From positions 15,633 to 79,632 of the forward strand of contig CAIRHC010000006.1 in assembly GCA_903878275.1 (NCBI GenBank): DNA of 64,000 bases. Reading direction: 5' to 3'. This document shows positions 2,367 through 2,891 of this stretch, piece after piece. Numbering within the stretch: the first letter of the stretch is position 1; each line of letters opens with the position of its first letter. The notes under the pieces are model-generated. The model searched no databases, was not told where the DNA came from, and saw only the letters and a list, made by a program, of their open reading frames with translations. This stretch comes from Candidatus Vogelbacteria bacterium (GTDB taxonomy: Bacteria; Patescibacteriota; Minisyncoccia; Phycocordibacterales; XYD1-FULL-46-19). A program made the position numbers and the translations under genes.

Positions 2367-2891
2367 ATGGAAAATTTGAAAGAGGGTAGAAGATACCCCT
2401 ACGCTGAAGCTTACGCTATCGCTCTAGATGTCTTAGAACAATTACGTCCCCATTGTTTTCGCATTGAAATTGCCGGTAGTCTTCGCCGGAAGAAGGCCGA
2501 AATTGGCGATGTCGAAATTGTTGCCATACCAAAGCCCTATTCAACTGACCCCGTGGAGACTGGTCTCGCTAGTATTGTTAACCGGTGGCCAAAGGTCAGA
2601 GGGGAACTTGAGTACAACAAAACAAAATCTACTCAGCGAATCCTGCCTAGTGGCATCAAGCTGGATCTATTTCTGGCCACTGAACAAAACTGGGGCCACA
2701 TCTTGGCCATTCGCACCGGCTCTGCCGACTATAGTCACAAAGTTTTAGCTTGCGGTTGGGTCCGACGAGGCTTCAAAAGTGATGGAGGAATTCTCTTCCG
2801 TAATGGCAAGAGACACGAGATTCACGAGGAGGAAGATCTCTTCAAACTGATTGGTCTGCCGTATGTCAGACCGGAAGACCGCAACTTATAA
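2367..2891 (+). CDS. minimal family-X DNA polymerase (Pol beta-like, palm+thumb only, ASFV PolX-like)
   Basis: Exactly 174 aa. Motif IEIAGSLRRKKAEIGDVEIVAIPK matches the Pol X GS-RR...D-D nucleotidyltransferase motif. KLDLFLA...ILAIRTGSADYSHKVLACGWVRRGFKSDGGILF and IHEEEDLFKLIGLPYVRPEDRNL match the Pol beta thumb (TGS...R..A...GF, E.#IF..#G..Y.EP..R). Confidence 0.8.
   Translation: MENLKEGRRYPYAEAYAIALDVLEQLRPHCFRIEIAGSLRRKKAEIGDVEIVAIPKPYSTDPVETGLASIVNRWPKVRGELEYNKTKSTQRILPSGIKLDLFLATEQNWGHILAIRTGSADYSHKVLACGWVRRGFKSDGGILFRNGKRHEIHEEEDLFKLIGLPYVRPEDRNL

Follow-up and report, generated by a model that had tools for sequence, protein, structure and literature searches.

Within the 64,000-nucleotide stretch of contig CAIRHC010000006.1 from a Candidatus Vogelbacteria bacterium that was analysed here (the window), the open reading frame (ORF) 2367..2891 is predicted from its sequence and its modelled structure to encode a standalone minimal family X (Pol beta-like) DNA polymerase. 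The 174-amino-acid (aa) protein, termed mini-PolX, consists only of a palm and a C-terminal subdomain, the latter binding the nascent base pair. It is almost certainly a nucleotidyltransferase (NTase) of PolX fold with an active centre. Judged by sequence comparison, it belongs to a large and previously uncharacterised clade which is widespread and not rare, being carried by phages and integrative elements of many prokaryotic phyla. Templated short-gap DNA synthesis tied to the replication or repair of the element is the most likely function and is proposed with moderate confidence. The subdomain that Pfam calls 'thumb' is named 'fingers' in most current PolX papers and is referred to here as the C-terminal subdomain.

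The gene had been pointed out in an earlier note on this DNA, which was made from the letters alone. Its placement was exact, as the ORF listing gave a plus-strand frame of 174 codons with an ATG start at these positions, and the peptides quoted at that time (IAGSLRRKKAEIGDVEIVAIP, KLDLF, IRTGSADYSHKVLACGWVRRGFKSDGGILF and EEEDLFKLIGLPYVRPEDRN) are all contained in the translation. The same protein occurs letter for letter on eight public contigs. A word-seeded search returned 1341 cluster representatives at E ≤ 1e-3, the best 120 of which are 64-75% identical to mini-PolX from the window and nearly all 167-180 aa long. An exhaustive hidden Markov model (HMM) search covering 1.84 billion cluster representatives retained 7444 of them at E ≤ 1e-3, of which 3691 reach E ≤ 1e-10 and 251 E ≤ 1e-30. 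Because of the identical copies and the many homologs, mini-PolX is considered a real gene and not a chance ORF. A divergent sample was formed by the 150 best representatives from the exhaustive search, whose mutual identity does not exceed 50%.

The Pfam model DNA_pol_B_thumb (PF14791) matched residues 116-173 with 30.9 bits (gathering score 25, E = 2.4e-7) over positions 5-63 of its 63, and it was also detected in nearly all homologs. With phmmer against the PDB, residues 6-170 were aligned to residues 154-312 of Thermus thermophilus PolX (E = 1.5e-10). A profile built from 34 homologs matched family X entries only, namely T. thermophilus PolX with an E-value of 2e-7, followed by Pol lambda with 1e-4, African swine fever virus (ASFV) Pol X with 0.006 and Pol beta with approx. 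0.01-0.02. An AlphaFold2 model calculated from the alignment of the 34 homologs reached a predicted local distance difference test value of 92 and a predicted template modelling score of 0.85. When it was compared by Foldseek, the top 50 PDB matches were all PolX with best template modelling (TM) scores of 0.74-0.76 for bacterial PolX, so that the predicted fold is nearer to PolX than to other Pol-beta-fold NTases. The Pol beta palm motif and the thumb that the earlier note had recognised are thus both supported: the thumb scored above the Pfam cut-off, the palm just below it, and the PolX alignment includes both. A nucleotidyltransferase of the MNT/KNTase type, which had been named as the refuting alternative, was not borne out since the best profile and fold matches are PolX and the thumb is present.

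Beyond these two subdomains, no further domain was found. Pfam HHH_8 and DNA_pol_lambd_f did not match, and no 8-kDa, helix-hairpin-helix (HhH) or PHP domain was detected. The absence of the 8-kDa and fingers domains had been correctly read from the sequence, as seen from the Pfam scan and from the start of the T. thermophilus PolX alignment at residue 154. In the model, the final helix spans residues 155-162 and the chain ends at 174 with no residues past the thumb. The NCBIfam PolX equivalog reached only 27 bits (cut-off 426) with coverage restricted to model positions 151-314. The 8-kDa and HhH domains are not required for membership in family X because ASFV Pol X lacks them as well. Neither PHROG nor PADLOC contains a model that matches mini-PolX; the family is still missing from phage family libraries, and a role in a defence system is unsupported.

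The active site of the clade carries a signature of its own, consisting of GSxRR, D-x-E (not D-x-D), LDLF and [ILV]RTGS. The Pol-beta NTase motif hG[GS]x(9-13)Dh[DE]h is present as A-G37-S38...D48-V-E50-I together with the third carboxylate, D100. On T. thermophilus PolX, G37-S38 aligned to G187-S188, D48-x-E50 to D198-x-D200 and IRTGS to YLTGS, and the catalytic carboxylates were found where the earlier note had expected them, with GDVE on GDLD and KLDLF on QVDLR. The corresponding segments of ASFV Pol X are QLDLF, including its D100, and HFTGP. G37, S38, R40, R41, D48, E50, D100, F102, R116, T117, G118 and S123 were invariant in 34 of 34 close homologs. Conservation was also high among the 150 divergent representatives, with G37 in 148, S38 in 146, R40 in 145, R41 in 148, D48 in 147, E50 in 141 (Asp in seven), D100 in 146, F102 in 141, R116 in 143, T117 in 144 and G118 in 146. 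As a combined motif, D-x-E occurred in 139 and D-x-D in seven of these sequences. Position 127, which we take to be equivalent to R283 of Pol beta, is occupied by Leu, Met, Ile or Val in 144 of the 150, while T. thermophilus PolX (R270) and ASFV Pol X (R127) have an Arg there. F102 presumably occupies the position of R258 in Pol beta. Where the clade has [ILV]-R, Y-F or H-F is found in 94% of canonical prokaryotic PolXs (PMC9226535).

The family has a characteristic size. Its members are approx. 155-190 aa long; among the top 150 representatives, the median is 175 aa, and 131 of them do not exceed 200 aa. The statement that 174 aa is the size of ASFV Pol X is therefore literally true, but the exact match is a coincidence within a real size class, as the lengths of the family span this range. 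Members from cultured Flavobacteriia (Flagellimonas, Aestuariibaculum, Aestuariivivens and Flavobacterium; P0281-P0283 and P0287) are just 161-162 aa long, such as WP_188214929 of Aestuariibaculum suncheonense, and certain representatives have 156-158 aa. If active, these short forms would be smaller than ASFV Pol X, which is usually cited as the smallest polymerase. On the sequences compared, the two-part minimal form is native to the clade. A recent truncation of a full-length PolX was rejected as its origin since longer close relatives lack 8-kDa and fingers domains: neither was present in any of ten such relatives scanned (237-351 aa), in which the additional parts were HNH, DUF4326 or unannotated. 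The rare fusions P0180 (351 aa) and P0199 (311 aa) combine the mini-PolX core with an N-terminal HNH endonuclease or with DUF4326, and they could be true fusions or merged gene calls.

Mini-PolX has thousands of relatives of 155-190 aa; the family to which it belongs is very large, and the protein is no rarity. Among the Patescibacteria, also known as candidate phyla radiation (CPR), relatives were found in Moranbacteria, Paceibacterota, Nomurabacteria, Zambryskibacteria, Saccharibacteria and Minisyncoccia. Many Bacteroidota possess them too, including the cultured Flagellimonas marina, Aestuariibaculum suncheonense, Aestuariivivens sediminis, Cecembia rubra, Belliella calami and Gracilimonas tropica. 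Further relatives belong to Chloroflexota (Anaerolineae), Ignavibacteria, Verrucomicrobiota and a few archaea. IMG/VR contains at least 221 relatives on contigs of approx. 20-80 kb. On viral contigs, the immediate neighbours are genes for Dam, N6/N4 methylases, HNH, ASCH, RusA, NinG, radical SAM, primase, terminase and portal proteins, a neighbourhood that is typical of accessory regions of temperate phages. One metagenome-assembled genome (MAG) of the Minisyncoccia holds three elements with mini-PolX, primase-helicase and recombinase, namely L009 and L019 on the 68-kb contig JBAQNN010000001.1 and L024 on JBAQNN010000003.1. Two of the three lie approx. 21 kb apart. Three such elements are a lot to carry for a CPR bacterium with its reduced genome.

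In the window, mini-PolX is part of a GC-richer element that is integrated beside a tRNA-Ala gene of a Patescibacteria host (Table 1). The mobile-element setting and the neighbouring PrimPol, both proposed before, were confirmed by the serine recombinase, the Prim-Pol helicase, the tRNA junction and the GC contrast. The module consists of PolX, a 77-aa ORF, a primase-helicase, the serine recombinase and the tRNA in this order. The GC content is 44.0% at 1..7295 and falls to 39.0% past the tRNA junction, and 7.3-kb windows of the host have 38.9 ± 1.7% with a maximum of 41.7%. The named relatives of a host histidine kinase further along the window are all Patescibacteria.

Table 1. Features of mini-PolX and of the integrated element in the window
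Feature	Position	Strand	Description
Left part of the element	1..2278	+	Cut by window edge; ORFs 14..625 (203 aa), 816..1664 (282 aa), 1904..2062 and 2078..2278
Mini-PolX gene	2367..2891	+	ATG start, 174 aa; palm and C-terminal (Pfam 'thumb') subdomain only
NTase motif G37-S38-x-R40-R41...G47-D48-x-E50	2475..2516	+	Predicted triphosphate-binding GS/RR and first two metal-binding carboxylates
K98-L-D100-L-F102	2658..2672	+	Third catalytic carboxylate D100 and invariant F102
I115-R116-T117-G118-S119	2709..2723	+	Clade version of the canonical nucleotide-binding motif Y-F-T-G-S; start of C-terminal subdomain
C-terminal subdomain (Pfam DNA_pol_B_thumb), residues 116-173	2712..2885	+	PF14791 match
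77-aa ORF directly downstream of PolX	2937..3170	+	Homologs in related CPR loci
762-aa primase-helicase	3285..5573	+	AEP Prim-Pol, PriCT-1 and C-terminal P-loop region (Pfam, PHROG)
519-aa large serine recombinase (integrase of the element)	5801..7360	+	Pfam Resolvase 2.8e-33, Recombinase 4.8e-10; PHROG integrase 2.6e-67
tRNA-Ala(TGC) at element/host junction	7296..7372	-	ARAGORN; overlaps 3' end of recombinase gene

The primase-helicase was recognised by Pfam Prim-Pol (5.3e-33) and PriCT_1 (1.9e-6) as well as by PHROG families of DNA primases and polymerase-primases, and its translation contains the Walker-A-like GPQGSAKST. The recombinase ORF runs approx. 65 nucleotides (nt) into the intact tRNA-Ala gene on the opposite strand. 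In related elements, such an overlap exists with tRNA-Tyr and tRNA-Leu (L013 8048..8131 and L025 5055..5137), and other relatives adjoin Glu, Asp and Asn tRNA genes. By their sequences, this looks like a family of serine-recombinase elements, each of which targets a different tRNA gene. Direct att repeats marking the far end of the element were not found in the window and seven related loci, a result which is expected for a serine recombinase; the window also cuts the element at its left. None of the ORFs in the left part had a match in Pfam, and the 203-aa ORF matched a PHROG of unknown function and has homologs in five related loci. A 15-nt inverted repeat (1718..1732 and 1785..1799; 93% complementary, 52-nt spacer) is located in a 240-nt intergenic region ahead of the small ORFs preceding PolX and could be a regulatory or origin-like part of the element. 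Just past the element junction, 7550..11173 (+) encodes a Ser/Thr-rich protein of 1207 aa that begins with a signal-like segment and contains many internal repeats; it is probably a cell-surface protein of the host. Downstream of this large gene, two tandem tRNA-Ala(GGC) genes (11957..12028 and 12055..12130, +) are situated 27 nt apart.

The arrangement is conserved in related CPR loci. Of 17 CPR-type loci with sufficient flanking sequence, 15 encode a primase/helicase on the same strand within three genes of PolX, usually followed by a serine recombinase and then by a tRNA on the minus strand (Tyr, Leu, Glu, Asp or Asn). Its position is filled by three unrelated types, namely AEP Prim-Pol with a D5-like helicase, AAA_25/DnaB-like fusions and Toprim, and PolX therefore accompanies the function and not one protein family. 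This synteny is the strongest contextual evidence and suggests a link of mini-PolX to element replication. Homologs of the 77-aa ORF follow PolX directly, or at a distance of up to three genes, in seven further CPR loci. The ORF itself had no match in Pfam, PHROG, PADLOC or the PDB, and a trans-acting DNA-binding partner was dismissed as its role for want of a Pfam, PHROG or PDB signal. A universal operon partner was sought by BLAST clustering of 1408 neighbouring ORFs and by Pfam counts of 300 immediate neighbours and was not found. In several Bacteroidota, a DnaQ-like 3'-5' exonuclease of the Rv2179c type is encoded immediately upstream of mini-PolX, for example in Cecembia rubra (L054 9444..9995) and Belliella calami (L058 7675..8226), and could be a proofreader in trans.

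On the basis of the fold, the architecture, the conserved catalytic constellation, the location on an element and the synteny, we infer a polymerase activity with the following substrate and biological role. Mini-PolX would fill short gaps in element DNA in a distributive and template-directed manner. Two metal ions would be held by D48, E50 and D100, and the triphosphate of the deoxynucleoside triphosphate (dNTP) by G37-S38 and R40-R41. The gaps could stem from primase-initiated replication intermediates or from repair. Lacking the 8-kDa and HhH domains, the protein has only its two subdomains with which to bind DNA. The enzyme would possess neither intrinsic lyase nor proofreading activity. 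R283 of Pol beta is the Arg that checks the template minor groove. As this Arg, present in T. thermophilus PolX and as R127 in ASFV Pol X, is replaced mostly by Leu or Met, the fidelity would probably be low.

Several points weigh against templated gap filling. The Pfam palm model PF14792 reached 23.2 bits with a gathering score of 25 and matched only residues 16-60 (model positions 11-54 of 113); the fold comparison, on the other hand, superposes the whole palm on PolX, beyond this partial coverage. The strict D-x-D...D triad of all characterised active PolXs is not present, as the second carboxylate is a Glu. In total, the active site shows four invariant departures from every characterised PolX, namely D-x-E for D-x-D, F102 for Arg, [ILV]-R for Y/H-F and Leu/Met at the R283/R127 position, and the substrate or the mode of synthesis could consequently differ. 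ASFV Pol X binds DNA with two subdomains, yet the residues of its 5'-phosphate pocket are not recognisably conserved in mini-PolX. Integration by a serine recombinase needs no gap filling, and the hosts presumably own gap-filling polymerases. Outside the CPR clade, the contexts are heterogeneous with no conserved neighbour, so that they give little functional constraint. Inactive noncanonical PolXs have degraded, non-conserved motifs (PMC9226535). The strong conservation in the mini-PolX clade is the opposite and argues for an active enzyme with a differently wired pocket, in which the lost palm Arg (F102) may be functionally replaced by R116 and the longer side chain of Glu at position 50.

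The replacement of the minor-groove Arg by Leu/Met and of Y-F by [ILV]-R across the clade would also suit a template-independent terminal transferase, which would not fill gaps but add nucleotides without a template to DNA or primer 3' ends of the element or phage genome, perhaps in order to alter the termini or to provide primers for replication. The adjoining primase genes fit such an activity. Several PolXs including ASFV Pol X bind dNTPs without DNA and can perform non-templated synthesis (PMC9226535), and an engineered Faustovirus PolX cut to palm and thumb keeps efficient template-independent synthesis (PMC13252658). Strong conservation is nevertheless seen in the C-terminal subdomain, which binds the nascent base pair, and the closest enzymes in sequence and fold, T. 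thermophilus PolX and Pol lambda, are templated gap-fillers. The predicted secondary structure also appears to lack a long insertion like Loop 1 of TdT and Pol mu, a comparison of loops that we infer from the model. A terminal transferase is thus considered unlikely. Still less likely is that the PolX scaffold serves a new reaction, in which nucleotides are transferred to an acceptor other than a DNA primer, for instance a protein, a small molecule or the 3' end of an RNA, maybe in counter-defence or in DNA/RNA modification. Pol-beta-fold NTases that are not polymerases, such as kanamycin nucleotidyltransferase, usually carry the motif as D-x-E; the four departures are in line with another acceptor, and the neighbours in phages are often modification or accessory genes (Dam, N6/N4 methylases, ASCH, HNH, radical SAM). 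Such an acceptor is, however, hard to reconcile with a PolX-specific C-terminal subdomain scoring above the Pfam cut-off, with the lack of a PADLOC defence model match and with a conserved partner in the clade of the window that is a primase-helicase and not a modification enzyme.

A catalytically dead PolX remnant that only binds DNA or serves as a scaffold is highly improbable. The triad of the clade is non-canonical (D-E-D), residues of the dNTP pocket are altered, and PolXs with altered triads such as the AEE variant of D. radiodurans are devoid of polymerase activity (PMC9226535). However, the three acidic positions, GS/RR and RTGS are kept in 94-99% of the 150 divergent representatives, and there is no second (PHP) domain that would explain the retention of the protein. 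Moreover, a Glu serves well as a metal ligand in many NTases of Pol beta fold. Templated short-gap synthesis remains the preferred reading. A more far-reaching and rather doubtful version of it is that mini-PolX represents a distinct class of minimal polymerases forming a self-contained two-gene DNA synthesis module with the primase-helicase, which would open and prime the origin while mini-PolX extends or fills. The rewired site, with D-x-E and an Arg supplied by the C-terminal subdomain (116) instead of the palm, would then be a new solution to nucleotide selection in family X.

The domain had already been recognised automatically, as judged from database labels, which are 'hypothetical protein' in RefSeq, 'DNA polymerase beta thumb domain-containing protein' in UniProt and 'PolX' at JGI. 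The clade was not found described in the accessible literature, and papers outside the searched collection could exist. A survey of prokaryotic PolX distinguishes only PolX1 (PHP-containing), PolX2 (bearing a further helical domain at its C-terminus) and PolX-like proteins (PMC12926913), and the analysis in PMC9226535 is confined to PHP-containing PolXs. A review of phage polymerases names no phage polymerase of family X (PMC8775771), and ASFV Pol X is presented as the minimal version of the family (PMC11646218). An ASFV-like minimal architecture is common in prokaryotic viruses and integrative elements and is combined with a conserved non-canonical active site. If active, the clade would include the smallest natural DNA polymerases known (members of 156-162 aa) and provide a natural experiment on which PolX residues templated synthesis can do without. 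It would also show how small elements in reduced-genome CPR secure DNA synthesis or repair, and it could provide compact scaffolds for enzymatic DNA synthesis, as already pursued with truncated viral PolXs (PMC13252658). As cultured Flavobacteriia carry the gene, the clade is experimentally tractable.

Among the known systems, ASFV Pol X (O174L; PDB 1JAJ and 5HR9) resembles mini-PolX most in its build. Both consist of the same two subdomains at the same length and lack 8-kDa, HhH and PHP domains, in agreement with the common architecture that the earlier note had seen. They also share GS-RR, the third carboxylate in L-D-L-F at residue 100 and T-G at 117-118. The further claim of homology holds at the level of family X but not as a specific kinship, since bacterial and phage PolX are closer. 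When compared with the family profile by hhalign, the palm-thumb part of T. thermophilus PolX gave a probability of 96.6% (E 5.6e-10, 30% identity over 155 columns) and a 252-aa coliphage PolX 96.3% (E 1.9e-9) over palm and C-terminal subdomain, whereas ASFV Pol X, with 42.8% (E 2.5e-4), was the weakest match of the PolX groups tested. A search seeded with ASFV Pol X, the query sequence being 100% identical to the nr/PDB entry, returned no natural relatives outside ASFV and none from prokaryotes. Together with the PDB profile E-values, in which ASFV Pol X ranks behind T. thermophilus PolX and Pol lambda, these results do not support a close kinship.

A specific relationship, with mini-PolX as source or product of a transfer and the same size by common descent, is accordingly quite doubtful; this judgement concerns the origin and stands apart from the weighing of functions. 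It is favoured by a HMMER profile match over 146 residues of each protein (query 27-172, ASFV 28-173), by the identical residue numbers of D100 and T117-G118 next to the common L-D-L-F, by a 174-aa PolX in the giant virus Harvfovirus and by one structure-based tree that places ASFV Pol X with bacterial PolXs (PMC11646218). The identity is only 21-29%, though, and the hallmarks of the viral enzyme are absent: D-x-D, H-F-T-G-P and R127 in ASFV are replaced by D-x-E, I-R-T-G-S and L127, the H115/R127 platform corresponds to I115/L127, and the segment aligned with the C81/C86 pair is free of cysteine. Functional roles of this platform and of the C81-C86 disulfide were reportedly described by Chen et al. 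in 2017, as cited in PMC11646218. ASFV is a cytoplasmic virus of eukaryotes, and its Pol X acts in base excision repair with a viral AP endonuclease and ligase, while mini-PolX resides on a prokaryotic mobile element with a primase-helicase as conserved partner. Convergent minimisation probably explains the common architecture, and it is the more economical reading because the clade is nearer to bacterial and phage PolX in sequence. A very fast divergence of ASFV Pol X is possible instead. The clade or its phage members might be a reservoir of minimal viral PolXs such as the ASFV enzyme.

PolX1, represented by T. thermophilus PolX (PDB 3AU2 and 3B0X) and B. subtilis PolX, is the closest relative in sequence and gave the best Foldseek matches. 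The spacing of GS-RR...D-x-[DE]...D is the same, as is the Ser at the position of N279 in Pol beta. In contrast to mini-PolX, PolX1 is a chromosomal repair enzyme of approx. 570 aa with 8-kDa, HhH, palm, C-terminal and PHP domains, of which only residues 154-312 are represented in the mobile-element-borne protein; the C-terminal PHP nuclease domain is absent, as mini-PolX stops at residue 174. From PolX1 to mini-PolX, D200 is substituted by E50, the Arg two residues past the third Asp by F102, Y-L by I-R and R270 by L127. Neither an N-terminal 8-kDa domain nor PHP is present in PolX2, which occurs in viruses and across domains of life and has been the subject of no experimental study (PMC12926913). 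Mini-PolX likewise lacks 8-kDa and PHP domains, but it stops at the PolX C-terminal subdomain (R172-N-L174), where PolX2 has an extra C-terminal alpha-helical domain. Foldseek also gave TM scores of approx. 0.7 to phage proteins of 252-254 aa. The PolX of Escherichia phage vB_EcoM_IME392 (AXY86063, 252 aa) is virus-encoded, short and without PHP like mini-PolX, but it has approx. 110 more N-terminal residues, D-x-D (RDVDLI) and H-S-T-G-S. In the phage (L007 3701..6467), this protein is annotated as family X and encoded directly upstream of a DNA ligase, an ASFV-like pairing of the repair type, whereas mini-PolX adjoins a primase-helicase.

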